Source: Spirochaetia bacterium
GTDB lineage: Bacteria; Spirochaetota; Spirochaetia; WTKD01; G963693115
Length of the DNA stretch: 64,000 bases
Reading direction: 5' to 3'
Assembly (NCBI GenBank): GCA_965226055.1
Contig: CBDDCA010000002.1
Span: 64,001-128,000 of the forward strand
This document shows positions 4,201 through 47,371 of the stretch, in pieces. Position numbers and translations under genes: made by a program. Position 1 is the stretch's first letter; each line of letters starts with the position of its first letter. The notes under the pieces were generated by a model. It was not told where the DNA came from and did no database searches. It worked only from the letters and a program-made list of their open reading frames with translations.

Positions 4201-6001
4201 AGGCTTTTACACCGATGTAACAGAAATAAAGGAAATCTATACTTCCAAAGCAGTAGCACCCAGCCAGTCATTACTCACAGGAAAGCTGGTAGTATCACAG
4301 TCAACAAACACAGCAGGCACAATAAAGCTGGTACTTACCGAGCTAAGCACATTTACAGGAGCAAAAGACTACGATGGCACAAGCATAACAGCAAGCAATC
4401 AGCTAGTATACACAGTATATGGCTTACAGAAAGACACTGACCCTACAGTAGCAGAAGTACTTGCAGGCAGAAAAGTAAACCTAGGCAGTGTAAGTAGCGG
4501 AGTGTACACAGTACCAGCCCTTGCCAGTTTAGGCTTGTCATCAGACACAGCACCAGTAGTAGCAGTAAAAGGAGCGACAAAGTATTACTTTGTGGTAGAA
4601 GTAGCAGTAAAAACAGATACAAGCAAGAAAGTAGCATCCTCAACAGTGGCAAGCGTAACAACCGCATCGCAGGCGACTGCCCCCGCAGAAGTAACAAGCA
4701 TACAAACAAGAGTAGCCCAGACAGGTATGAGAGTATCGTGGACAGCTCCCAGCCTCAGTGCAAGCCACAAAGCAAATACAGGCGATGCCCTAACAGTAGC
4801 ACAAGTATCGTACAAAGTATACAAAGTAGCCAAAAGTGGCAGTGCAAGAAGCGTAACAGCGATAAAAAATGCAGACTCAAGCCCCACAACAGTAGCAGCA
4901 GGAACAACAAACACTACCCTGACAGGATTGACAAATGGAACGACCTACGAAATAGTAGTACAAGCAGTAAACAGCACCGATCCTACAAAAGCATCGACAG
5001 GAGAACGCCACGAGTTTGAAGTAAGTGCAATATCTATAGGAAACATTAGCATAGTATCAGCAGAAGTAGGTACAGCACTAGCATCAAATACTACAAGAGT
5101 ATTAGCAAGCACACCCAGTGGCAATGCCTTTACCTGTGATGCCACCATACTAGAGGCAGATGCAAAGAAAATCAAAAAAGAAACAGGCCTTACAGTATCG
5201 TTTGATCAGAGTAGCAAAACAGTTACCATAACAGGCATAGCAAATAAGTCCAATATACGTGACCCTAATATTACTGAGTATAGCTATGATGTAGCACAGT
5301 GTACAATAACCGCTTCAAAGAAAAAAGTACCAGCCACTATCGTTATACGTACAGATATAAGAACAGCACCATCAGGAAAAGCAGCTACCTATTACAGACC
5401 AACAACAAAATCAGCACTACAAACTATTATCAGTGAAGAAAAAACAAGACAAGGTTCAGGAGGAAACAGTAACCCTAGCCCCAACCTCAACATGATAGAC
5501 ACCAGTGCCATTACTGATATGAATAGTTTATTTAGGGATGATAGTACTTTTAATGGAGATATAACACAGTGGAATACCAGTGATGTAACGGATATGGGGG
5601 CTATGTTTGCTAGTACTAGTGCTTTTAATCAAGATATAGGAGCTTGGGATATAAGCAAGGTTACTAATACGAGTTCAATGTTTGATAATGCTGAAGCTTT
5701 TAATCAAGACATAGGAAACTGGAATGTGAGTAATGTTACGGGTTCAACATTTATGTTTGCTGGTGCTAGTGCTTTTAATCAAGACATAGGAAACTGGAAT
5801 GTGCGGAAGTTTCGTTGGATTGATGCTAATTTTCCATACCTTGCTATATTTAATGGTGCTTCTAAATTTGATCAAGATTTATCATCATGGAAATTGTGTA
5901 GCATATCAAGGATACATCCTAATGATTTCAAAAATTCAGCTATGGAAGGCAAAACAGCACAGTACCCAAAGGTTGCTGGTAGTTCAGCATGTACATCGTA
6001 G
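1249..6001 (+). CDS. Large surface lipoprotein (FN3-like repeats + C-terminal DUF285/BspA repeats), frameshifted at a poly-G tract in the signal peptide region
   Basis: AGGAG RBS at 1238-1242, ATG at 1249; with G14 the frame stops at TAA after 19 codons, with G13 it reads through the lipobox VLVGC into the 1430-6001 ORF; WQAP/WTAP FN3-like motifs; FNQDIGNWNVS repeats; paralogue of 8988-13700. Confidence 0.85.
1279..1292 (+). repeat. G14 homopolymer, candidate phase-variation tract
   Basis: aaaatc-G14-tacac; the paralogue at 55200-55206 has GAGGGGG (7 nt, in frame). Confidence 0.85.
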
Positions 6002-6049
6002 CATATATGTAGACAGAGCTATGGCAAGAAGGTAGAGAAAAGAGGATGA

Positions 6050-6163
6050 GTGGAGCATTCTATTGGATGCTCCATCAGTACTTATACTTTCCTAAAAATT
6101 CCTAAAAACTTGTCTTTCTCTGTAAAACAACGTGATATACTACAAATACAAAGCGTATCAATA
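6050..6163 (+). pseudogene. Degenerate IS30 transposase 3' fragment
   Basis: Translates EHSIG...VKQRDILQIQ versus EHSIGLLRQYFPKK...VKQSDILQVQ in the intact transposases; DNA aligns with about 8606-8710. Confidence 0.75.
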
Positions 6164-6178
6164 GCAGTACTTACTGTT

Positions 6179-7018
6179 TTAGTTAGTACTTGCTTTGGTA
6201 GTACAGCTATTCTTCCATGTAGGTGGTGTATATTTGCTTCCGTTAGTCTTAAAGGCATCTTTACAATACATAACTTTATCTACATTCCATTTAGATAAGT
6301 TTTTATTAAATGGAGTAGTATTTACAAAAGTATCAGTCATGTCAGTTACTTTACTTACATTCCATTTACTAATATCGTCATTAAATTTAGTGGATGCTCC
6401 AAATAAAGATTTCATATTTGTTATATTGCTAGTATCCCAACCTGATATGATTCCATTAAAATTTCCATAAATAGCGTTTTTGTTATCTGATGATAAAACA
6501 TTTTTCAAGGATGTCATTTTACCAATATCAATATGGAGTAAATTAGGAGTATTATTATCAATAGTACCATCATCATTAGTATCCATTATATTCTTTATAT
6601 ACTTATCTAATTCTTCAGGTGTGCTAAAGGATTTTGTATATTTTAATTTCAACTTAAACTGTCCTTTTTGTTCACTGCCTTTTCGTACAAGGTAAATAAC
6701 AAAATCTTTAGTCAAGTCATTAAAATTGCTATCTCTATTGTTATCTGGCGTACCTGATAACTGCACTCCATTATCTACTTTCTTAAGTGAAAGTCCATTA
6801 GGCAAAGGTTTATCTGTAGTATATGTGTCAGATTTATTATATCCATCAAAAGTCATTGTGGATATACTGCTAATAGTCTCATTTATAGAAAGTGTAAATT
6901 CTGGTAATTTTGATAAAACTGACCCTGTGCTTGATGTTGTGTCACTTTCACAACTTGCCAATAAAATACTTGTAATACTAATTACAAGAGTAAAAAATAA
7001 TAATTTTGTTAGTTTCAT
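6179..7018 (-). CDS. Lipoprotein with DUF285/BspA-type repeats
   Basis: Lipobox SILLASC; FNGIISGWDTSNITNM, FNDDISKWNVSKVTDM, FNKNLSKWNV repeats; GGAGG RBS. Confidence 0.85.
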   Translation of the reverse strand: MKLTKLLFFTLVISITSILLASCESDTTSSTGSVLSKLPEFTLSINETISSISTMTFDGYNKSDTYTTDKPLPNGLSLKKVDNGVQLSGTPDNNRDSNFNDLTKDFVIYLVRKGSEQKGQFKLKLKYTKSFSTPEELDKYIKNIMDTNDDGTIDNNTPNLLHIDIGKMTSLKNVLSSDNKNAIYGNFNGIISGWDTSNITNMKSLFGASTKFNDDISKWNVSKVTDMTDTFVNTTPFNKNLSKWNVDKVMYCKDAFKTNGSKYTPPTWKNSCTTKASTN

Positions 7019-36824: not shown

Positions 36825-36872
36825 TAAAGATGTATAATAAAGATATATGGTAGAGTATAGCAAACTGTGTTG

Positions 36873-38903
36873 CTACTTCTCTTTCTGTGCATACCGTAAA
36901 AATTCCATGCTATATCTCCCTCTTCCTTCTGTGCTATTTCTTAGTACTGTTGAAAAGCCAAACAATGTACTAAGAGCAGACTCTGCATGAATAATACTTA
37001 TGTTTCCCTTTGTGTCAACATTGTGAATAATGCTATTTCGTACATTTAGAGGTTGCATTGCATCTCCTACAAAATCAGTAGGAACAGTAATAATTACTTT
37101 CATAATAGGTTCCATACATACTACGGTAGCTTTGTGAGCAATAGTATAAAAAGCCTGTGCAGCAGAATAACGAAGTGACATTTCGGCTATACTTTCATTT
37201 CCTTCATAGGATATATCAAGAATATGTACATGGGTGTTTACCATAGGATACCCAAAAGCCACACCGCTTTTCATTGAATCTTCAATGCTGTTTTCGACAT
37301 ATCGTAGCCAAATATCAGCAACAGAGCTGGATACTGCATTACTTATGATATTGCCCTCTTGTTCTGCTGCTCCTACTTGGAGTTCTATGCTTAGCTTAAT
37401 GGCAAGATCGGTTTGTCCGGGAATATGATCTAGTGTATACACTTCACTGTATTGAGAAGTAACCGCTTCTTTATAATTGACAGTGGGATGTCCCTGACGA
37501 ACAGGGAGTTTATAATCATTTTGTATTTTTGTGGCTAATACTTCTAAATGGAGTTCTCCCATGCCAGAAATAAGTATTTGTCCCGTATTTTCATCTTCTT
37601 TATGATGAAAACTTGGATCTTCAATCTCTAATTTTTGTAACACTTCTAATAGTTGTTCTCTATCTGAGAGAGTTTGAACTTCAAGCGTGGTAGAAATGAC
37701 AGGGGCTATGTTCTGAATGCCTTCTAGCATATATGCATCATGAGTAGAGTCGCTAAAGCTCTGTCCTGTAATAAACGATTTAGGGCCAATAAGCACTGCA
37801 ATTTCTCCTGCATGTAACTCTTCGCATTGTGTTGATTTATTGGCATGCATCTTTAAGATACGCAAGACACGTTCTTTTTTTTGTGTATTAGTATTGATGA
37901 CAGTGCTTCCTTTCTTAAGTGTCCCTTTGTATATGCGAACATAATGCATAAGCCCATAATCTTTGTCGACAACAGACTTAAACACAAAGCCAAGAAGGGC
38001 ATTTTTATGCTCTTGCAACGATTTGGTAACATTTCCGCTGGGAGACATTGCATGTAAAAGAGGGGGCGGTGTCTCTTGTGGATAAGGCAAGTACTGGACA
38101 ACAGCATCAAGGAGCGGTTGAACACCAATATTTTGCAAGCTGGAACCACAAAGCACTGGTAGCAGAGCATGCTCTTGCACTGCTTTGCGTAAGGTTTGAG
38201 TTAACTCTTGTTTGCTAATAGCCTCCTCGTTAAGAAATTTTTCGGTAAGCACATCCGAGTATTCTATAATTTTCTCTCTTAAGTGATTGTGCCATGTTTC
38301 TGCTTGTTCTTTATAGCTGTCTCTAATATCTTGTGTGGTATAGATGACTCCGTCACTGTTTTTTTTCCAGAGTATTTCTTTCATCTCCAGTAAGTCTATA
38401 ATGCCCTCAAAATCCTTTTCGCTCCCAATAGGAATGTATAAAGGAAGAGCCTCACTGCTGAGTTTCTCTTGAATATCCTTAAGGACTGCGTAAAAATCTG
38501 CCCCAAGCCTGTCTATTTTATTGATATATGCAATTCGTGCTACATGGTAATGTTCTGCCTGATGCCATACCGTTTCTGATTGTGGCTCAACTCCCGAGAC
38601 AGCACAAAATATGCCAATAGCTCCATCAAGCACACGAAGTGAACGCTCTACCTCAATAGTAAAGTCTACATGACCAGGAGTATCAATAATATTGATACTA
38701 TGCTCGTGCCAATCAATAGTAGTACATGCAGAACTGATGGTAATACCACGATTCTGCTCCTGCTCCATCCAGTCCATCTGAGCCGTCCCCGTATCGACCT
38801 CGCCAATTTTATGCGTCTTTCCTGCAAAAAATAACATGCGTTCGGTAGTGGTAGTCTTTCCCGCATCAATATGAGCAATAATGCCAATGTTGTGAATATT
38901 CAT
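36873..38903 (-). CDS. fusA: Elongation factor G paralogue (stand-alone, EF-G2-like)
   Basis: AHIDAGKTTTTE, RGITI, DTPGHVDF, NKID, GMGELHLE; not in an rpsL-rpsG operon; divergent domain IV. Confidence 0.88.
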   Translation of the reverse strand: MNIHNIGIIAHIDAGKTTTTERMLFFAGKTHKIGEVDTGTAQMDWMEQEQNRGITISSACTTIDWHEHSINIIDTPGHVDFTIEVERSLRVLDGAIGIFCAVSGVEPQSETVWHQAEHYHVARIAYINKIDRLGADFYAVLKDIQEKLSSEALPLYIPIGSEKDFEGIIDLLEMKEILWKKNSDGVIYTTQDIRDSYKEQAETWHNHLREKIIEYSDVLTEKFLNEEAISKQELTQTLRKAVQEHALLPVLCGSSLQNIGVQPLLDAVVQYLPYPQETPPPLLHAMSPSGNVTKSLQEHKNALLGFVFKSVVDKDYGLMHYVRIYKGTLKKGSTVINTNTQKKERVLRILKMHANKSTQCEELHAGEIAVLIGPKSFITGQSFSDSTHDAYMLEGIQNIAPVISTTLEVQTLSDREQLLEVLQKLEIEDPSFHHKEDENTGQILISGMGELHLEVLATKIQNDYKLPVRQGHPTVNYKEAVTSQYSEVYTLDHIPGQTDLAIKLSIELQVGAAEQEGNIISNAVSSSVADIWLRYVENSIEDSMKSGVAFGYPMVNTHVHILDISYEGNESIAEMSLRYSAAQAFYTIAHKATVVCMEPIMKVIITVPTDFVGDAMQPLNVRNSIIHNVDTKGNISIIHAESALSTLFGFSTVLRNSTEGRGRYSMEFLRYAQKEK

Positions 38904-39003
38904 ATATTATAAGTGTAGTATAATACCAGTTTGGAGTGTTGGGGGGAGGCTTTTGTTATTAAATGATTGTGTAAATAATTTAATAATGTGGTATAATGAG
39001 AAT

Positions 39004-40377
39004 ATGGAAGAAGAAAAATTTGATTATAAAGTTGAAAATATTCTTGAATATATTACAGCAGTGAGTGAAATTTATGATGATCTTGCTACTGATGATGATG
39101 AAAAGAATGATAAATATAAAAAAATGCTATTTTTCAGAGGGCATGGAAGTTCAGAATATAAACTCTTACCAAGTCTTTTTAGAGAAAAGAGTAAGTCAAG
39201 AGGTGAGAAAAGAATTCTTGAGGATTATAAGCATCATTTACCAAGAAATATAAACATTAAAGGTTTAGATTTTGATAAAAATAGAGCAGAAATTTTAGCA
39301 GAGATGCAACATTATGGTATTCCTACACGGTTGTTAGATTGGTCACTATCTCCTATCATAGCTCTTTATTTCGCTTTAAAAGGCAGTCATGAAAAAAAAG
39401 AAAAAGGAAAAGATGCTTGTGTGTGGATATTTAATCCTTGGAAGTATTATGATAAAACTATAGGTGAGCAAATTAGGATTATGCAAGTTAGTTTAAAAGA
39501 AGAACTTTTTCGTATAATATATACAAAAAGACTTTATTCTGATTATAGAAGTGATATAGAGGAATGGAAGAAGGCATCTGATCATATAAAAAAAGCATTA
39601 ATTGATAAGCTGAAGGATAAAGATAAACAGGAAATAAAAAAAATTCAACAGAAGATAGAATCTGCTTGTAAAAAATTAATCAAAGAAAAAGAAATAGGTA
39701 AAAAAACATTTTTTAAGAATATAGATAAAAACAAGAAAAGAGAAGATGATGTTAAGAAGTTTATACAAGATGGAATGGATAAAAAAAGGGAGGGTAATAA
39801 AAAAGAATTAAAACATATTAAAGAATATGTAAAATCCCTTGGTATTAAAGAACAAATAATAAATGATGTATTTACTAAATTAGAAGGAGAAATAGAAAAG
39901 AATTATGAACAGATGGACATTGATGTAAATAATATTCTAACTGCTTACTTACATTCTTATTCTTATTCTATATCTTCATTTTCATTAGGACATGCTCTAT
40001 TATCTAGTAACAGCAGGTTCAATGTTTATTACACCTTATTATCAATGCGAGGAGCAATAGAAAGAATTCCTGAAGAAAAAGTATTTCTTAAGATCCTTGA
40101 ATACCCAATAGGATATATTCCATCATACCAAAATGATAGATTAATACATCAGGCATCAGTATTTACAATACACGGAACAGAAATAGATCTTCAGTTGAAT
40201 AAACAAAAAGAGAACTATCAATATTTGCGGAAGATAACTATTCCTGGAGCATTAAAAACAGAGATATTAAAAACATTGCATATGCTCTTTATAAATGATT
40301 ATACTATTTTTCCTGATTTTGAAGGGATGAGTAATCAATTTGAAATAACAAATGGCTTATTCCGTTATCGTGTATGA
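39004..40377 (+). CDS. FRG domain protein with Lys/Glu-rich helical insertion
   Basis: FFRGH...LLPSLFR, MQHYGIPTRLLDWS.SP..ALYFA, NDRLIHQASVFT, TIFPDFEG. Confidence 0.88.
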   Translation: MEEEKFDYKVENILEYITAVSEIYDDLATDDDEKNDKYKKMLFFRGHGSSEYKLLPSLFREKSKSRGEKRILEDYKHHLPRNINIKGLDFDKNRAEILAEMQHYGIPTRLLDWSLSPIIALYFALKGSHEKKEKGKDACVWIFNPWKYYDKTIGEQIRIMQVSLKEELFRIIYTKRLYSDYRSDIEEWKKASDHIKKALIDKLKDKDKQEIKKIQQKIESACKKLIKEKEIGKKTFFKNIDKNKKREDDVKKFIQDGMDKKREGNKKELKHIKEYVKSLGIKEQIINDVFTKLEGEIEKNYEQMDIDVNNILTAYLHSYSYSISSFSLGHALLSSNSRFNVYYTLLSMRGAIERIPEEKVFLKILEYPIGYIPSYQNDRLIHQASVFTIHGTEIDLQLNKQKENYQYLRKITIPGALKTEILKTLHMLFINDYTIFPDFEGMSNQFEITNGLFRYRV

Positions 40378-40480
40378 ATGCAAAGAAGGAGCGGAAGATA
40401 TAAAAAAATCATTTATTTTTTCTTTATATTTAGATATTAATTAGAATTTTATACTATAATTTTCTTTTATTTAGTATCTC

Positions 40481-40522
40481 CTATCATGGATTTTTGAGGG
40501 CACACGAGATGGTAAAACTCCA
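40481..40522 (+). mobile_element. Solo end of the IS481-like element
   Basis: CTATCATGGATTTTTGAGGGCACACGAGATGGTAAAACTCCA resembles 57033-57075 and the reverse complement of 55862-55888. Confidence 0.75.
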
Positions 40523-40540
40523 TTCCCGTGAAATATTCAC

Positions 40541-40569
40541 TTGACATATATAGTGTATATTGATACTAT
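40541..40569 (+). promoter_or_regulatory. Sigma70 promoter of the peptide-ThiF-ThiF-UvrA operon
   Basis: TTGACA, 17-nt spacer, TACTAT with extended TGn; AAGGAG RBS at about 40592-40597. Confidence 0.75.
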
Positions 40570-40603
40570 ATATAATATAACAAATATAATTAAGGAGTAA
40601 TAA

Positions 40604-40807
40604 ATGATAAAGCATAAAAATACCATAGATTTTAATTTTGAAATTCTATCAAAGGCAAAGGAACATGATGCAAGATATTCTTATACTTGTAGCGGAGGTG
40701 TCAGCTATTGTTGTACAAGAACTTGTAGGGGTAATGATCATGTGAGTAATAGCGAAGATAAGTGGGCGACTTACTATAACTTAAATGCAGGAGTTGTACA
40801 ATATTAA
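40604..40807 (+). CDS. 67-aa Cys-rich peptide, putative precursor or substrate of the ThiF enzymes
   Basis: Strong promoter and RBS; core YTCSGGVSYCCTRTCRG; 3' end overlaps the first ThiF gene. Confidence 0.75.
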   Translation: MIKHKNTIDFNFEILSKAKEHDARYSYTCSGGVSYCCTRTCRGNDHVSNSEDKWATYYNLNAGVVQY

Positions 40808-41921
40808 CCTAGATAAAATATATCATCTACGTAATAGCGTAGATGTTTATATTTTTAATAAAAGTATACTTCACTTTTATTTTATCAATACAAGAAAGGA
40901 AGTAAGAATTCAGGTATCTCATGATATAATATCTTTTATTTCCCAATTAGATGGAAAGAAGACAGTAAGAGAGTGCTTATCACAGTTTTCATTAACTGAT
41001 GTTGATGAAAAAAATATAAGTGATTTTTTGCTATTTTTAGAAAAAGAAAATATTATAGCATGTGAATATGAGGATATTTTATTACCTGACCAGATTGATA
41101 GATATACAAGACAAATTACATACATTGAAGATAGTATTTTAGGCAGTAAAGGACAAGCATTACAACAACAGCTTATTAGTAAAAAAGTTTTAATCTTTGG
41201 AGTAGGTTCGGTTGGTAGTGCTATTGCTATTTTTCTTGCTCGTATAGGAATAAAAAATTTTGTTTTAATTGATAAAGATACTCTTGAGTATGGGGATAGA
41301 GTAAGACATCTCTTTTATGAAGAAAAATATGTTCATTCATCAAAATGCAACAGTGTAAAAAAATATTTACAACAGATAGATAGTGATATACAAGTTACTC
41401 CTCATCAGACATTGATACAACCTGATACAGATATAGAAAATTTTTTTGATGGCGTAGATTTTGTTATAAACACTATGTCTACCCCGTATATTCTTTATAC
41501 TAGTTTGAAAATAGAAAAAGAATGCTTAAAAAGAAAAATTCCTCTGTATGTAGCTGGTGGTTTTGATGGGCACTTAGGATCGACAGGTGAATTAATTTTT
41601 CCTCCCCTTACTCCTTGTGTCTCATGTTATATGAATTATTTTTCATCAGCACTTAAAGATTGGAAGCCTAAATATAATGTTGAAGCCATTGATACAAGAA
41701 ACATGAAAAATGCAAATTATGAAACTGGTGGGCTTGCTGGATTATCAATGTTATCTGCTTCGCTAGCAAGTGTAACTATTGTAAATTTTATGGTAGGTAA
41801 CTATCAAAGTATTTTTCGAGGTGAATATGATTTTGAGAATATAAAAATTGATTATATTCAAATGAAAAAAAATAAAGATTGTAAAATATGCAACAAATAT
41901 ATAAACTCAGAAGTTCAATAG
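40785..41921 (+). CDS. ThiF/MoeB (E1-like) family protein 1 with N-terminal RRE/wHTH-like extension
   Basis: DRYTRQ, GVGSVG, IDKD followed by degenerate GDRVRH (instead of SNLxRQ), PCVSC and CKIC Zn ligands. Confidence 0.88.
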   Translation: MQELYNINLDKIYHLRNSVDVYIFNKSILHFYFINTRKEVRIQVSHDIISFISQLDGKKTVRECLSQFSLTDVDEKNISDFLLFLEKENIIACEYEDILLPDQIDRYTRQITYIEDSILGSKGQALQQQLISKKVLIFGVGSVGSAIAIFLARIGIKNFVLIDKDTLEYGDRVRHLFYEEKYVHSSKCNSVKKYLQQIDSDIQVTPHQTLIQPDTDIENFFDGVDFVINTMSTPYILYTSLKIEKECLKRKIPLYVAGGFDGHLGSTGELIFPPLTPCVSCYMNYFSSALKDWKPKYNVEAIDTRNMKNANYETGGLAGLSMLSASLASVTIVNFMVGNYQSIFRGEYDFENIKIDYIQMKKNKDCKICNKYINSEVQ

Positions 41922-42982
41922 CGCTTACCTATAGAAATATTGATCTTGATAAAATAGTCATTGATTTCTTTTTTACTGATATAAGAAAGAATATTTCCAT
42001 AGAGTTTTCTAGTAAAAAAATTTATGATATATTGTTTTTGTTTGATGGAAAAACAACTATTCAAGATATAATTCAGAAAATATCTATAACTAATATAGAA
42101 GCCTTTTTAAAGGTAATTAAAATGCTCAATGAGCAATGTATATTATTAGAAGTAGATACAGAATATAATGAATATTTTAGAGATAACTTTAAAGTATTTC
42201 ATTTTTTAGAAAATTATTATTCAAAGATTAGTAGAGTAAACGAAGTATTTTTAAAAATTAAAAATAGCACAGTGATGATTATTGGGTTAGGAGCAGTTGG
42301 ATCATTTGTTGCTGATATTCTTCTTGCTAATGGCGTAGAGAATTTCATATTAGTTGATAATGATACTGTTGCTATTTCTAATCTCCCAAGACAGTCATTT
42401 TTTGAAAAAGATATTGGTAAGTATAAAATAGATTGTATAGCAGAAAAATTTATGAGTATCAACAGTAATGTAAAAATAGAAAAAATACATGCTTTTTTAG
42501 ATAAAGATTTTTTTACACAGCATAATTTTAACAAGATAGACTTAATTATTAATTGTGCAGATAAGCCATCTGTTGATACTAACTCTCTTATAATAGGAGA
42601 GTATGGAATAAAAAATAATATACCTCATATTATTGGAGGAGGATATAATTTTCATATTTCCCTCATTGCTCAAACCGTAATTCCTTTTAAGACAGCTTGT
42701 GCTAAATGTCTTGATACTCAGCTAAAAGAGATAAATAGTTTTAAGGACACTGATATGAAAAGATTGATAAGAGAAGAACGTAAAATAGGAAGTTTTTTGC
42801 CATTATGTAATATTGCCTCTAGTATTATTTCAATGGAAAGTATAAAAATATTATCTGATTTAGATAAGTATCTTGGGACAGTAAATACACGGAAAGAGTT
42901 TAATGCTGAAACATTACAGATAATTGATAGGATGAAATTTAAAAAGGATCCTAATTGTTCATGGTGTTCAAATAATGGATAA
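41888..42982 (+). CDS. ThiF/MoeB (E1-like) adenylyltransferase 2 with N-terminal extension
   Basis: GLGAVG, VDNDTVAISNLPRQ, NCAD, CAKC and CSWC. Confidence 0.9.
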   Translation: MQQIYKLRSSIALTYRNIDLDKIVIDFFFTDIRKNISIEFSSKKIYDILFLFDGKTTIQDIIQKISITNIEAFLKVIKMLNEQCILLEVDTEYNEYFRDNFKVFHFLENYYSKISRVNEVFLKIKNSTVMIIGLGAVGSFVADILLANGVENFILVDNDTVAISNLPRQSFFEKDIGKYKIDCIAEKFMSINSNVKIEKIHAFLDKDFFTQHNFNKIDLIINCADKPSVDTNSLIIGEYGIKNNIPHIIGGGYNFHISLIAQTVIPFKTACAKCLDTQLKEINSFKDTDMKRLIREERKIGSFLPLCNIASSIISMESIKILSDLDKYLGTVNTRKEFNAETLQIIDRMKFKKDPNCSWCSNNG

Positions 42983-45197
42983 TACAAATATTACATATTC
43001 TAATATACTTACTAATAATCTTAAAGGAATAGATGTAACTATTGCCAAGAATAAAATAACTTGTTTTTATGGAAAGAGTGGTTCAGGAAAGAGTTCAATA
43101 GCATTTAATACAATTAATGCTATTTCAGAGTATGAATATGATAAGCTTCATAATAAAGAAGGGAGTAATTATTCTTTTGTCGTTTCGGATTACAATAATA
43201 TTATTCCATCGGTAGCAATTAGACAAATTAATAAAAATAATAATAGTCTTTCAACTATATATAGTTTTACATATATATCATCTTGCTTAAAAAAAATTTT
43301 CTCATATTACTCTAATATGAAATCTACAAATTTTTCACTCAATAATCTCTATAACTTATGTATTCACTGTAAAGGAATTGGGCATACATACACCCCTAAT
43401 ATTGAATACATCCTTGATAGGAAAAAGCCATTGGTACATCAGCCTATTAAGTATCATAATAAGTCTCGTCAGGATATATTTGATCAAAAATTGTTAAAGT
43501 TTTGTGCATTAAAAAATATTGATATACACAGTACTTTTGATGAATTAAGTACTGCAGAGAAAGATATGATTCTATATGGTGCTTCTGATCAAAAAATTGA
43601 ATTATCCTATCAGGTATATACTAAAGCACATAAAAAAAGAACAAGAAAGGTAAAAGAGCATTATATAGGAATACTACAAGAAATTGAGCAAATACTTGCT
43701 AGTAAGAAAGATATAAAAGAAGAATTTTTGAAACAACAGCCTTGTATGTATTGTAAAGGAGCATTATTTAAAGAAAAAATAAGAGATATTCCTATTTTGA
43801 ATAGTACAATAGGAGAGATTATGCTTCTTGATATTACTGGGTTATTGTCTTTTATTACGAGTAATAAGAGTGGTATTAAAGGGAGTGAGATAAGTACTAG
43901 TTTTAATTCATTGATGAATTTTTTACAAATTATGGTGAACAATAGCTTAGGACATTTATATTTAACTAGGAATATACCTTCTTTATCTGGGGGAGAGTTT
44001 CAAAAAATTCATTTTTGCTCAATACTCAACTCCTCGCTTTCAGGAATTTTGTTTGTAGGAGATGAAATTTCTTCTAATTTACATGTGAGTGAGTATGAAA
44101 ATATATGGAATCAGATTCAAAACATAAAATCAAAAGGGAATACTATCATTTTAGTAGAACACGAAGATTACTTTATTCAAAGAAGTGATATTAAAGTAGA
44201 AGTTGGTCCAAAGGGAGGGGTAGATGGAGGAAGAATAGTTTCAATAAATTCATACAAGAAAAGTCTTGATAGCAGTTTTAGAAATAAGATTACGGCTGAA
44301 ACATTTATAAAAATAGAAGATATCAATATCAATAACATTACCCACATGACAGTCAATATTGCAAAAAATTGTCTAAATTGTATTTGTGGAATATCTGGTT
44401 CTGGAAAAAGCTCTATTTCAAGATACTTACATGATAGGTATCCAAATTTTATTTATATAAATCAAAAACCAATTAATTCAATAAGCAAATCTATCATTGC
44501 AAGTTTTTCAGGTATCTTTACCGATATTAGAGAGTTATATTCTCAAGAGAATAATATTGATATGAGTTATTTTACATTTAATTCAGAAAATGGGCAATGT
44601 CATACTTGTAAAGGGAAAGGGCTTATTGAGGAAAAAATTAGTTTTTCAAATGATGTCATATCATATATGTGTCCTAGTTGTAATGGTGTGAGATTTAATA
44701 ATGATATTTTGCAGTATACATTTAAGGATCATAGTATATATGAGTTATTAAATTTGACAATAGATGAAATAATTTATAGTAATCTTTTTGAAGAGAGTAC
44801 CTCTTTAACAAATAAACTAGCATTGTTTGCTACTTTAGGATTAGGATATTTAACATTATTTCGCTCTGTAAAAAGTATTTCAGGCGGTGAATCACAGCGG
44901 CTTAAAATGATTAAGTATATCAATACCAATATTGAAAATAAATATTTTATCTTTGATGAGCCATTTACGGGAGTAGATAAAAGTAATTTTAGAAATATAT
45001 TACAGCTGTTTGATGAGTTGATTAGAAAATCAGCAACAATTATTATTGTAGAACATAAATTAGAAGCAATTAAGAATAGTGATCACATAATAGAACTTGA
45101 CAGAAATAAAAAAAATGAAGGAAATATAGTATTTGAGGGAAATATAGAACAGATGAAAAAGAGTAAAAAATCTATTATTAAAAATTATTTATTGTAA
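42975..45197 (+). CDS. UvrA-like (short, class II/DrrC-like) double ABC ATPase
   Basis: NNLKGIDV, GKSGSGKSS, LSGGE, second GISGSGKSS, ISGGE, FDEP; Zn fingers CIHCKG, CMYCKG, CHTCKG, CPSCNG; 740 aa. Confidence 0.88.
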   Translation: MDNTNITYSNILTNNLKGIDVTIAKNKITCFYGKSGSGKSSIAFNTINAISEYEYDKLHNKEGSNYSFVVSDYNNIIPSVAIRQINKNNNSLSTIYSFTYISSCLKKIFSYYSNMKSTNFSLNNLYNLCIHCKGIGHTYTPNIEYILDRKKPLVHQPIKYHNKSRQDIFDQKLLKFCALKNIDIHSTFDELSTAEKDMILYGASDQKIELSYQVYTKAHKKRTRKVKEHYIGILQEIEQILASKKDIKEEFLKQQPCMYCKGALFKEKIRDIPILNSTIGEIMLLDITGLLSFITSNKSGIKGSEISTSFNSLMNFLQIMVNNSLGHLYLTRNIPSLSGGEFQKIHFCSILNSSLSGILFVGDEISSNLHVSEYENIWNQIQNIKSKGNTIILVEHEDYFIQRSDIKVEVGPKGGVDGGRIVSINSYKKSLDSSFRNKITAETFIKIEDININNITHMTVNIAKNCLNCICGISGSGKSSISRYLHDRYPNFIYINQKPINSISKSIIASFSGIFTDIRELYSQENNIDMSYFTFNSENGQCHTCKGKGLIEEKISFSNDVISYMCPSCNGVRFNNDILQYTFKDHSIYELLNLTIDEIIYSNLFEESTSLTNKLALFATLGLGYLTLFRSVKSISGGESQRLKMIKYINTNIENKYFIFDEPFTGVDKSNFRNILQLFDELIRKSATIIIVEHKLEAIKNSDHIIELDRNKKNEGNIVFEGNIEQMKKSKKSIIKNYLL

Positions 45198-45284
45198 TAT
45201 AATAGAAAATATAGATGCTTATATAACTTTATTCCCCCACCCAAACTAAACAATAACGCCATAATACACTATAATATAAAATAA

Positions 45285-47213
45285 ATGGTATTTCACTCTC
45301 TCGCAATACATATACTAGAGCAATCTATACAGGCACTCTATGCTCCCATGCTAAAGGAAAGCAATGCCACTGTAGATAATGCTACACTCTCTACTATTAT
45401 GGGTATTCCCCCTAGCATAGACAAAGGAGACGTGGCTTTTCCCATGTTCTTTCTTGCAAAGATTGCAAAGAAAAGCCCGAAAGATATAGCTGTTCAGCTT
45501 GTTGAGTATATTATGAGCCAAAAAGACACACAAAATAGCAATGGTTATAATAATTCTCCAAAAAACTCCCTGCATCTATTACAGAAAGTGCAAGCTGATG
45601 GGGCATATGTGAATGTATTTTTTCAAAGGATAGCCATTACTAAACTGGTACTACAGGATATTGAACAACAAGGACAGCAGTACGGAGCGACACTCCATTC
45701 GATAGCACATGCCTATATTGATGCACAGTATAGCACCGAACCTACGCTAAAAGGCAAACGCATAATGATAGAATATTCTGCCCCCAATACCAATAAGCCC
45801 TTGCACATAGGGCATCTGCGTAACAATGTACTAGGAGAATCTATAAGTCGTATACTAGCCTTTTCTGGAGCAGAAGTGCAGCGAGTCAATCTTATCAACG
45901 ACAGAGGCGTGCATATTTGTAAATCCATGCTTTCGTATCAGATGTTTGCACATGGGGAAACCCCTGCACAAGCACAGCAAAAGCCAGATCATTTTGTAGG
46001 AAGCTACTATGTAAAATACAGTAAGTGGGCAGAACAGCATCCTGAGAAAGCAGAGCAAGCAATAAACACCATGCTACAGCAGTGGGAACAAAACGATCCT
46101 GAAACCCGAGCATTGTGGAAACAGATGAATACATGGGCGTTGGCAGGCATATTTGAAACCTACAAAGTTACTGATATTCATTTTGATACAATTTACTATG
46201 AAAGTGAAACCTACCAGCGAGGAAAAGAAGAAATTCTTAAAGGGTACAAAAAAGGACTTTTCTATAAAGATGAGAAAGGAGCTATACGCCTCTCGTTAAA
46301 GGAAATAGGCCTTGATGAAAAAGTGCTATTACGCTCCGATGGTACGAGTGTGTACATTACCCAAGATGTAGGCACTGCACTGCAACGATATGAAGATTGG
46401 AACTTTGACACACACATGTATGTTGTTGCAAATGAACAAACATATCATTTTCAAGTATTATTTTATTTGCTTAGCACACTAGGCTTTGCTCCTGCCTGTA
46501 ATAACGCCATGCAGCATCTCCACTATGGTATGGTACATCTTCCCGAAGGAAAAATGAAATCAAGAGAAGGGAAGGTTGTCGATGCCGATGATCTTATTGC
46601 TACTGTGTCCTCACTTATCAAAGAAGAAGTATATGAACGCAACAGACACGATGAGTTTGAAGATGTAGAGTCGGTGGTACATAACATAGCATTAGGAGCT
46701 ATCCATTATTATTTGCTTCATGTAAATGCCAAAAAAGATTTATTGTTTAACCCTGCATCTTCTATATCGTTTCAAGGAAACACAGGCCCCTATCTACAAT
46801 ATACCTGTGCAAGAATCACCTCACTCTTACGAGAGTATAATCGCAAGCACAACCTAAAGCACAGTCAAAAGTACAGCACAGACACAGAGACTGCTGAAGC
46901 TCCCGCCCCCCAAGATATGCAAAGCCTCTCCCAAAACTATAGCATGCAAGATGAAGAGTGGAAGCTCATCATAAAGATGGATAATTTTGCCTCCATCATT
47001 ACGCAAGTAATAGAAAAACACGATCCTTCACTCCTAGCGAAATATGTGTACGAGCTTGCAAGCGATTTTGCACGATATTACCATAGTGTTCCCATTGTGA
47101 AAGAACAGAACCCTGCCATACAGTCATTGAGATTGAGAATATGCACAGCACTTTTACAGGTAATGAAAAATGCACTGCATTTGCTGGTCATTCCCTATGT
47201 AGATAAAATGTAA
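45285..47213 (+). CDS. argS: Arginyl-tRNA synthetase
   Basis: EYSAPNTNKPLHIGHLRN, KMKSREG, GNTGPYLQY. Confidence 0.97.
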   Translation: MVFHSLAIHILEQSIQALYAPMLKESNATVDNATLSTIMGIPPSIDKGDVAFPMFFLAKIAKKSPKDIAVQLVEYIMSQKDTQNSNGYNNSPKNSLHLLQKVQADGAYVNVFFQRIAITKLVLQDIEQQGQQYGATLHSIAHAYIDAQYSTEPTLKGKRIMIEYSAPNTNKPLHIGHLRNNVLGESISRILAFSGAEVQRVNLINDRGVHICKSMLSYQMFAHGETPAQAQQKPDHFVGSYYVKYSKWAEQHPEKAEQAINTMLQQWEQNDPETRALWKQMNTWALAGIFETYKVTDIHFDTIYYESETYQRGKEEILKGYKKGLFYKDEKGAIRLSLKEIGLDEKVLLRSDGTSVYITQDVGTALQRYEDWNFDTHMYVVANEQTYHFQVLFYLLSTLGFAPACNNAMQHLHYGMVHLPEGKMKSREGKVVDADDLIATVSSLIKEEVYERNRHDEFEDVESVVHNIALGAIHYYLLHVNAKKDLLFNPASSISFQGNTGPYLQYTCARITSLLREYNRKHNLKHSQKYSTDTETAEAPAPQDMQSLSQNYSMQDEEWKLIIKMDNFASIITQVIEKHDPSLLAKYVYELASDFARYYHSVPIVKEQNPAIQSLRLRICTALLQVMKNALHLLVIPYVDKM

Positions 47214-47371
47214 TCTTTCTTGCTTTGACACACTTTTATATAAGACATTTGTGTATTTTTACTATAAATTACTACATAATCGTATTTTTTATTATTTTGT
47301 AGTGTAATAATTACATCTATGTAATATTTAATGGTATAATAAAAATGCTTATAACTCTAGGAGTATACAAT

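Follow-up and report, generated by a model that had tools for sequence, protein, structure and literature searches.

A stretch of 64,000 nucleotides from a Spirochaetia bacterium (GenBank assembly GCA_965226055.1, contig CBDDCA010000002.1, positions 64,001 to 128,000), referred to in the following as the window, carries at positions 40604–45197 four co-directional open reading frames (ORFs) that encode a small Cys-rich peptide, two paralogous ThiF/E1-like enzymes, ThiF1 and ThiF2, and a UvrA-like double ATP-binding cassette (ABC) ATPase. This layout, including the 67-residue peptide and the overlapping ORFs, had been proposed from the sequence alone in an original prediction and was found as proposed. 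Judged by its gene content, the cassette is a putative ThiF-like system of the type that makes peptides synthesized on the ribosome and modified post-translationally (RiPPs), and it is not named in Pfam, NCBIfam or PADLOC v2. ThiF-like adenylyltransferases are a growing source of new peptide chemistry, and the characterized examples MccB, PaaA, GrcB, IndF and EnfB are described as single enzymes in the parts of the literature covered here, from which all articles cited by PMC number are drawn. The cassette would add a two-enzyme version whose peptide substrate is unusually conserved and has an invariant Trp and a C-terminal Gln-Tyr. The location of the cassette in defence islands, the missing exporter and the linked UvrA-like gene suggest that the modified peptide works inside the producer; if this is true, RiPP biosynthesis would be linked to prokaryotic immunity. 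As the cassette is small, with three to five genes and about 4.7 kb, the hypotheses set out below are directly testable in E. coli K-12.

Recurrence of the Cassette Across Bacteria

A search with ThiF1 returned 134 relatives at E ≤ 0.001, and the 119 relatives listed besides the window protein share 33–46% identity over 87–99% of the query, including its N-terminus. The locus survey, performed with one genome per species, yielded 68 loci spanning at least seven phyla, namely Bacteroidota, Firmicutes, Fusobacteriota, Proteobacteria (Alpha-, Beta- and Gammaproteobacteria), Actinobacteria, Spirochaetes and Patescibacteria; carriers include Pseudomonas, Pantoea, Enterobacter, Pectobacterium, Acinetobacter and Rhodobacterales. 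As the arrangement recurs in 68 loci from other genomes, it is far beyond chance. Both ThiF genes are present in 65 of these loci and the other three are partial. The original prediction had been staked beforehand on a conserved small ORF in homologous loci, and such an ORF was extracted upstream at 59 related loci, all ending in Gln-Tyr and 55 of them distinct. The UvrA-like gene is present in 41 of the 65 two-ThiF loci, immediately downstream in 36 and upstream in five. It is absent from 13 loci for which at least 2.5 kb of downstream and at least 3 kb of upstream DNA are available, and 11 loci are cut by contig ends, one of them (L036) with a fragmented UvrA-like copy. In 18 loci of the Firmicutes type a gene for a RadC-like JAB protein separates the peptide gene from ThiF1; an intact HxH..D motif is seen in all 18, and the three proteins scanned all match PF04002 (E ~1e-23 to 1e-30). 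According to an all-against-all clustering of the flanking ORFs of the 68 loci, only the ThiF, peptide, UvrA-like and JAB genes recur. All five UvrA-less genomes that were searched hold only UvrA genes of canonical size or larger and no cassette-type copy elsewhere, and the three-gene core of peptide and ThiF pair thus stands alone. The proposal that the UvrA-like protein is an obligatory immunity factor or effector fails on these 13 loci and five genomes.

In 32 loci compared, the matrices of pairwise identity obtained for ThiF1, for ThiF2 and for the UvrA-like protein are correlated (Spearman 0.64–0.77; 0 of 500 permutations reached the observed values), which, since the loci are kin, speaks for co-inheritance and not for independent events. 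Chance adjacency of unrelated genes is ruled out by this co-evolution together with the recurrence. The Pseudomonas loci L038, L041, L054 and L081 have their UvrA-like gene upstream of the peptide in opposite orientation, and L047 has it upstream in the same orientation beside an insertion sequence (IS)-type integrase; the linkage is thus preserved despite a changed gene order. In L036, which is labelled Tyzzerella, the UvrA-like gene (4472–6691) was found by tblastn in several pieces in different frames next to intact peptide, JAB and ThiF genes, and by its sequence it looks like a decayed copy.

The Conserved Peptide

The peptide family, of about 60–75 residues, was analyzed in an alignment of 56 sequences numbered from the window peptide. 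Invariant are C29, S34, C36, C37, C41, W54, G63, Q66 and Y67, and F12, S30, G31, T38, R39 and L58 are conserved to at least 90%. The anatomy comprises a leader with the motif F-E-E-[IV], a core of the form CSGxRSDCCTRxC (C-x6-8-CC-x3-C), a linker of variable length and the follower W-x-x-[FY]-L-x-x-x-x-G-x-[IVL]-Q-Y-COOH. All 56 aligned sequences end in Tyr, two divergent members end in Phe, and the residue preceding the invariant Gly63 is A, G or S. The only carboxylate conserved in all members is the C-terminal α-carboxylate; Asp35 is replaced by Tyr in the window peptide and by Ala in several others. In divergent peptides the Cys/Ser/Thr core varies, e.g., CSNTCTSHGCSAHCTQKC, with leader and the W..FL....G.[IV]Q[YF] end being kept.

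A profile search against 1.84 billion representatives recovered only 52 clusters, 40 of them at E ≤ 1e-10. The proteins are nearly all 44–133 residues long, the profile ends at the final residue of the protein, and no convincing fusion was found among the 52 clusters. In the eight clusters looked up, every named copy among the listed members (at most 15 per cluster) is annotated as "hypothetical protein", and the peptide has no match in Pfam, NCBIfam or PADLOC. The ESM Atlas pointed to clusters of Cys-rich bacteriocin precursors with scores of 0.82–0.86, which lie under the mark of 0.9 and are a weak lead only. An AlphaFold2 model based on the 56-sequence alignment is of low confidence (pLDDT 55, pTM 0.21) and contains a single helix at residues 51–60; on this model the peptide looks like a flexible precursor and not like a β-grasp domain.

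The Two ThiF-Like Enzymes

In both enzymes the ThiF domain (PF00899) begins at residue ~123 (E 1.5e-32 for ThiF1 and 5.9e-39 for ThiF2), so that each carries an N-terminal extension; the extension had been predicted for both proteins at ~100 residues and measures ~120. Among proteins of solved structure, MccB is the nearest to ThiF1 by sequence (E 1.4e-17, residues 70–370), and PaaA is matched with E 6e-9. The AlphaFold2 model of ThiF1 (pLDDT 83.7) aligns in Foldseek with MccB (E 1e-18) and PaaA (2e-15) over ~372 columns including the N-terminus, and with MoeB and ThiF over only ~280. Because the fold match spans the full length, the N-terminal extension of ThiF1 is predicted to be a peptide clamp of the MccB/PaaA type, which bears out the proposed kinship with ThiF proteins that carry a RiPP recognition element (RRE) or clamp. 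ThiF2 is homologous to ThiF1 over residues 2–361 with 24% identity, and from this full-length homology we infer a peptide clamp for ThiF2 as well.

ThiF2 displays the canonical motifs of E1 enzymes. G133xG135xxG138, D157xD159, N165 and R168 within SNLxRQ, and K180 are conserved in 48 of 48 copies and the NCAD motif (D225) in 47 of 48; of the zinc-binding Cys residues (CxxC...CxxC), C271, C274 and C357 are found in all 48 copies and C360 in 40. ThiF1 is more derived, with R-H replacing R-Q and a family motif N-T-x-D-E-P. All NCBIfam matches of the two enzymes are far below the cut-offs. There are weak matches to the models of CBASS Cap2, 6A-MBL cap2_3 and PRTRC ThiF, and the PADLOC E1-E2 matches (E ≥ 5.6e-19) cover the adenylation domain only. 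A cyclodehydratase of the thiazole/oxazole-modified microcin or linear azol(in)e-containing peptide type (TOMM/LAP) was rejected, as no YcaO is encoded in the island or among recurring neighbours and TIGR03603 is matched with E 2.2e-6 and 27.6 bits against a cut-off of 187.65; microcin C-like chemistry was rejected because the peptide has no C-terminal Asn. A complex prediction for ThiF1, ThiF2 and the peptide scored 0.00 and was used neither for nor against binding.

The UvrA-Like ATPase

The fourth protein matches the UvrA models NF001503 and TIGR00630 with E 1e-119 to 1e-121, yet far under their cut-offs. Aligned to the canonical 947-residue UvrA that the window genome encodes elsewhere, its residues 14–112 correspond to 15–111 and its residues 116–739 to 267–936. 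The ~155 residues of canonical UvrA that it does not have, ~112–266, are a segment that we take, by analogy with Ecm16, to be the UvrB-binding domain. The insertion DNA-binding domain PF17755 is kept at residues 146–242, and in 42 of 42 copies both Walker A and both Walker B motifs, both LSGGE signatures, both H-loops and four CxxC pairs corresponding to two zinc modules are invariant. This is the architecture of short UvrA paralogues, i.e., a tandem ABC ATPase with the insertion domain kept and ~112–266 absent. In the PDB it matches Ecm16 (7SH1) with E 7.5e-68, UvrA2 (2VF7) with 5e-68 and canonical UvrAs with 1e-82 to 2e-72; being no closer to Ecm16 and UvrA2 than to canonical UvrAs, it has no supported membership in their clade. 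In Ecm16 the UvrB-binding domain with its zinc module is missing and DNA binding needs the insertion domain (PMC10192343). The ATPase activity of Ecm16 responds only to DNA that carries the drug. A PADLOC match to mad3 (E 1.7e-40), MAD3 being the ATPase of an OLD-like module (PMC13662399), was judged to be generic ABC-ATPase homology.

Gene Overlaps and Transcription Signals

The features of the locus are collected in Table 1. With the start codons chosen, the ORFs overlap by 23, 34 and 8 nucleotides. Coupling of all four genes had been proposed from these overlaps, which are present in the window; the tight overlap of peptide and ThiF1 is peculiar to the window, and in the other loci a hairpin-bearing spacer or the JAB gene intervenes. 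The near-consensus promoter and the ribosome-binding site ahead of the peptide are both in place as sequences. Promoter-like sites number 55 in the AT-rich stretch compared to 47.7 ± 6.9 in shuffles, and as they are not enriched, the promoter is plausible only and statistically undistinctive. The hairpin behind the peptide is, by its sequence, a probable attenuator. Hairpins of −12 kcal/mol or below occur within 100 nucleotides past the peptide stop codon in 41 of 50 other loci compared to 19 of 100 control windows taken inside ThiF genes, with a median ΔG of −17.25 compared to −8.6 kcal/mol in the controls. This conservation fits an attenuation that would yield more mRNA for the peptide than for the enzymes. 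Around the locus, scans for Rfam families and tRNAs gave no matches.

Table 1. Cassette genes, signals and neighbouring elements in the window.
Feature	Position	Strand	Description
Peptide ORF	40604–40807	+	67 residues; core YTCSGGVSYCCTRTCRG, C-terminus YYNLNAGVVQY
ThiF1	40785–41921	+	378 residues; predicted MccB/PaaA-type peptide clamp and E1-like adenylation domain
ThiF2	41888–42982	+	364 residues; ThiF1 paralogue, canonical E1 motifs
UvrA-like double ABC ATPase	42975–45197	+	740 residues
Promoter-like site	40541–40569	+	TTGACA-17 nt-TACTAT; 10 of 12 matches; TG precedes the −10 element (extended −10)
Shine-Dalgarno sequence	40592–40597	+	AAGGAG, read directly from the sequence; 6 nt ahead of the peptide ATG
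Terminator-like hairpin	40824–40855	+	9-bp stem and T-rich tail; 17 nt past the peptide stop, within the 5′ end of ThiF1
FRG-domain protein	38953–40377	+	474 residues
EF-G-like GTPase paralogue	36873–38903	−	676 residues
~44-nt element	40481–40524		just upstream of the peptide promoter

Mobility and Defence-Island Context

The cassette is self-contained and mobile. ThiF1 relatives are found in 2 of 72,556 records of a plasmid collection and in none of 50,697 records of a phage collection. Of 5,426 E. coli genomes a single one gave a match, a piece of 21% only that belongs to the ABC gene. Records of the Enterobacter-type peptide exist for no fewer than 1000 contigs that bear the name Enterobacter cloacae or Klebsiella pneumoniae. 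To describe the setting, two neighbours per side of each cassette with at least 120 residues were scanned, in total 208 proteins (123 from L017–L054 and 85 from L054–L081) after exclusion of 15 of 223 candidates, i.e., eight from L082–L084, three spurious ORFs overlapping a cassette and four near-duplicate rows from sister loci. At a PADLOC threshold of E ≤ 1e-10 and counted without a matched control, at least 33 of the 208 neighbours match named defence proteins (at least 22 of 123 and at least 11 of 85). In the first set these are RdrA, RdrB, MkoA, MkoC, PDC-S01, PDC-S37, PglZ, BrxL, GajA, DndB, DUF499 and components of type I and type II restriction-modification systems, and in the second set pVip, Hhe, PD-T7-1, PD-T7-5, AbiEi, AbiEii, MzaA, a DRT reverse transcriptase and a SAVED-HNH effector (CBASS). 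By Pfam the flanks moreover contain integrases, transposases, recombinases and GmrSD. On the Acinetobacter plasmid pXBB1-8 the cassette comes after pglZ-brxL, part of a BREX-1 system, and both the window copy and the copy in L025 adjoin an FRG/PDC-S15 gene.

As had been predicted, no exporter, protease, YcaO or dehydrogenase is encoded in the window island according to the ORF list and a Pfam scan. Neither the Pfam scan of the 208 neighbours nor the ORF clustering of the 68 loci revealed a recurrent transporter, exporter or leader peptidase. The defence-rich flanks and the lack of a recurring exporter fit an intracellular or defence role, which is consistent with the original argument that missing export favours such a role.

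Proposed Mechanism and Alternative Explanations

Tentatively, we favour a reading, somewhat short of an even chance in our estimate, in which the ThiF pair activates the C-terminal carboxylate of the peptide with ATP and a Cys or Trp residue captures it, yielding an intracellular product that acts at DNA, probably in defence against phages or mobile elements, with the UvrA-like protein often added to protect or target DNA. The hairpin attenuator past the stop codon would supply the peptide transcript in excess of the enzymes. The two ThiF proteins would act jointly, probably as a heterodimer, and their N-terminal clamps would grip the F-E-E-[IV] leader and/or the Trp-containing follower helix. 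ThiF2, which has the canonical catalytic set, would adenylate the α-carboxylate of the invariant Gln-Tyr end with ATP. An internal nucleophile would then take the acyl-adenylate, either a core Cys thiol as described for GrcB or the indole nitrogen of the invariant Trp as described for IndF, and the outcome would be a macrocyclic peptide kept inside the cell, where it is expected to stay as there is no exporter. The product may act at DNA, from which the UvrA-like ATPase would clear it or on which it would direct it. The likely role would be defence against phages or other mobile elements, given the placement of the cassette in defence islands and its horizontal movement.

A number of observations weigh against this account. 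The assigned adenylation site and nucleophile come solely from residue conservation. A DNA-toxic product with obligatory UvrA-type immunity is hard to sustain for the clade of the 13 loci that have no UvrA-like gene, as their peptide core is nearly the same. The JAB protein of 18 loci is a classic partner of E1 enzymes in conjugation systems and not of RiPP pathways. Peptide identity across phyla is 28–44%, which is unusual for a RiPP precursor, and a cofactor-like product or a tag would explain such conservation no less well. The loci are mutually related, so that P values for the hairpin and for the co-variation overstate independence, and the location in defence islands is guilt by association. 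The window copy itself deviates at two positions: in its ThiF1, S232-T233 replaces the family motif D-E, of which the Asp is found in 50 of 51 locus copies, and its ThiF2 has Lys where 47 of 48 copies have Arg102. To judge from these substitutions, the window copy may work differently or weakly. As one separate metagenomic relative (46% identity) shares the Ser-Thr variant, it is a lineage trait and not recent decay. The D-E position of ThiF1 presumably corresponds to the Mg-binding Asp130 of MoeB, and by this correspondence ThiF2 would be the likelier catalytic subunit in the window.

A more far-reaching reading, to which we assign a somewhat unlikely status, is a new form of anti-phage or anti-plasmid immunity. 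Here, the tandem E1-like pair would activate the C-terminal Tyr of the peptide, which would be deployed on invading DNA as a macrocyclic DNA-binder or as a covalent adduct, and a UvrB-independent UvrA-like motor would spare the host chromosome or deliver the peptide. If true, an intracellular "RiPP as immune effector" would exist in defence islands of many phyla, including those of Enterobacter, Klebsiella, Acinetobacter and Pseudomonas.

The main rival is a ubiquitin-like tagging system, which we regard as unlikely. In this case the ThiF pair would adenylate the C-terminus of the peptide, or Gly63 after trimming of the last four residues, for transfer to a target that offers an amine or another nucleophile, such as a protein of the phage or the host, the UvrA-like ATPase or a nucleic acid, and the JAB protein would process the conjugate or undo it. 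An E1-like enzyme with a JAB protein (PF04002, E ~1e-30, in 18 loci) is the hallmark pairing of such systems. However, neither the window nor 47 of the 65 two-ThiF loci have a JAB gene, and no E2 and no catalytic-Cys domain of an E1 is encoded, as the PADLOC E1-E2 hits extend over the adenylation domain only. The invariant Gly, which comes after A, G or S and is followed by the last four residues, resembles the Gly-Gly site of a ubiquitin-like protein (Ubl), and the whole peptide is conserved as a functional tag would be. Against this, the peptide ends in Gln-Tyr and not in Gly, it shows one helix and no β-grasp (pLDDT 55), and the invariant Q66 and Y67 would be odd in an extension that is discarded; trimming of the last four residues by JAB to expose Gly63 is disfavoured for the same reason and because JAB is missing from most loci. 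The weak matches of the ThiF proteins to the E1 models of CBASS Cap2 and 6A-MBL and the defence-island setting also speak for tagging, yet sequence and fold agree best with the RiPP enzymes MccB and PaaA and not with the E1 enzymes of Ubls.

We consider it improbable that the cassette makes a conventional, bacteriocin-like antimicrobial RiPP that hits the DNA of competitors, is released by an unlinked transporter or by lysis, and is met by the UvrA-like protein as self-resistance in the manner of DrrC and Ecm16. The division of the peptide into leader, core and follower, with divergent members differing in the Cys/Ser/Thr-rich core, the MccB/PaaA-type enzymes and the weak Atlas leads to Cys-rich bacteriocin precursors (0.82–0.86, below 0.9) would agree with it, and short UvrA paralogues mark gene clusters for DNA-binding drugs (PMC10413001, PMC10192343). 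However, an exporter or leader peptidase recurs neither among the 208 neighbours nor in the clustering of the 68 loci, the core is nearly identical across phyla, unlike in competitive bacteriocins, the neighbours belong to defence and mobility and not to biosynthesis, and the presumed resistance gene is missing from a third of the loci.

Very improbable is a sulfur-relay or cofactor system, in which the peptide would be a carrier adenylated and thiocarboxylated at its C-terminus like ThiS or MoaD, or its four Cys residues would bind a metal or cluster, feeding a DNA-directed modification with the UvrA-like ATPase: the ThiF2 motifs are closest to those of ThiF and MoeB (SNLxRQ, NCAD, CxxC pairs), four peptide Cys are invariant, the high conservation fits a cofactor-like product and an ATPase partner of the ABC/SMC type recalls DndD of DNA phosphorothioation, but flank clustering and Pfam scans of the neighbours found no linked cysteine desulfurase, rhodanese or downstream transferase, the C-terminus is Gln-Tyr and not Gly-Gly, the low-confidence model has no β-grasp fold, and RiPP-type clamps, that of ThiF2 being deduced from homology, are predicted on both ThiF proteins and are absent from ThiF and MoeB.

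Relation to Known Systems

The closest known systems are those of MccB (microcin C7) and PaaA (pantocin A). A ThiF/E1 domain with its motifs, a clamp domain and a co-encoded short peptide are all found in the cassette, the two-domain architecture is shared with ThiF1, and the small peptide gene lies directly upstream as in the MccB and PaaA systems. In contrast to these, the cassette has two tandem paralogous enzymes instead of one, a peptide that ends in Gln-Tyr and has neither the Asn end nor a Glu-Glu-Asn motif, no exporter, no tailoring or immunity gene of the MccD/E/F type and no PaaB oxygenase, and it adds a linked UvrA-like ATPase. A mechanistic precedent is provided by the streptococcal and enterococcal RiPP macrocyclases IndF, GrcB and EnfB, in which a C-terminal or side-chain carboxylate is adenylated and then attacked by the nitrogen of a Trp indole, the thiol of a Cys or an amine (PMC12150305, PMC12596934, PMC11256085); an invariant Trp, four Cys residues and the C-terminus are likewise present in the cassette peptide. 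The clusters of these enzymes, compared here by description only, carry a peptidase and a transporter (PMC12150305), whereas the cassette has neither.

Ecm16, DrrC and UvrA2 resemble the UvrA-like protein in the two ABC sites, the loss of ~112–266, the insertion domain and the two zinc modules. Its linkage, however, is to a ribosomal peptide system of Gram-negatives, Firmicutes and others and not to actinobacterial polyketide or non-ribosomal peptide clusters. With CBASS Cap2/Cap3, Bil, 6A-MBL and PRTRC the cassette shares the E1-like adenylation domain, the defence or mobile context and, in 18 loci, JAB. Unlike these E1-JAB-Ubl systems it has no E2, no catalytic-Cys domain and, on the low-confidence model, no β-grasp modifier, its enzymes carry predicted RiPP-type peptide clamps, and its matches to their models are far under the cut-offs. 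Compared with the features of Ubl conjugation and defence, the peptide ends in Gln-Tyr and shows no β-grasp (pLDDT 55), the hits concern the E1 part only and the window encodes no JAB. Among the named anti-phage systems of PADLOC-DB v2.0.0 none was matched, the only matches being the generic ones to E1-E2 and mad3, and the expectation that no existing system-level class covers the cassette holds for PADLOC, NCBIfam and Pfam.

In the literature, no description joining ThiF or MccB with UvrA, RiPP, JAB or defence was found, the supplementary RRE-ThiF network of PMC12150305 lying outside the material covered. The covered parts of two reviews on ThiF RiPPs mention neither UvrA or excinuclease nor two or tandem ThiFs or a heterodimer, and those of the EnfB paper (PMC11256085) mention neither UvrA nor two ThiF-like enzymes. 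A global survey of RRE-ThiF fusions selected clusters with a protease and a transporter (PMC12150305), and the cassette has neither of them. Figure S1 of the same article contains unannotated clusters in a network of 27,400 RRE-ThiF members, which may already include the ThiF proteins of the cassette.

Insertion Site of the Window Copy

Between about 38950 and 45200 the guanine-cytosine content drops from 37–40% to ~27%. A genome of the same genus (G001) matches the left flank (36850–39442) with 93% identity, the end of the FRG gene (40022–40374) with 72% and the right flank (45238–47289) with 97%, and the 4863 bp of the window between the latter two (40375–45237), which contain the cassette, are replaced in G001 by 973 bp. 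As G001 holds different cargo there, the site acts as a variable hotspot. A ThiF2-type gene was found in none of 40 relatives searched, the best other match (E 3.2e-17) being to the ThiF domain only.

The cargo of the slot in G001 is an ORF for a membrane protein of 224 residues with several hydrophobic segments (L090, 581–1255) between the FRG gene and argS. The FRG gene of the window shares the low-GC island with the cassette, which it immediately precedes; its product matches PF08867 (E 3.4e-21) and the PADLOC candidate defence family PDC-S15 (E 1.3e-44), and its G001 homologue has a divergent middle. A second FRG protein is encoded just downstream of the cassette in L025 (12840–14090). On its left the island is bordered by the gene of the EF-G-like GTPase paralogue, which starts only ~50 nucleotides from the start of the FRG gene. 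The ~44-nucleotide element, without a match in the Rfam and tRNA scans, is present once in the window and once in its draft genome (at most three mismatches) and at no fewer than 12 dispersed sites of G001 with about 92–93% identity, and possibly it is a repeat particular to the genus, marking the border of the insertion.

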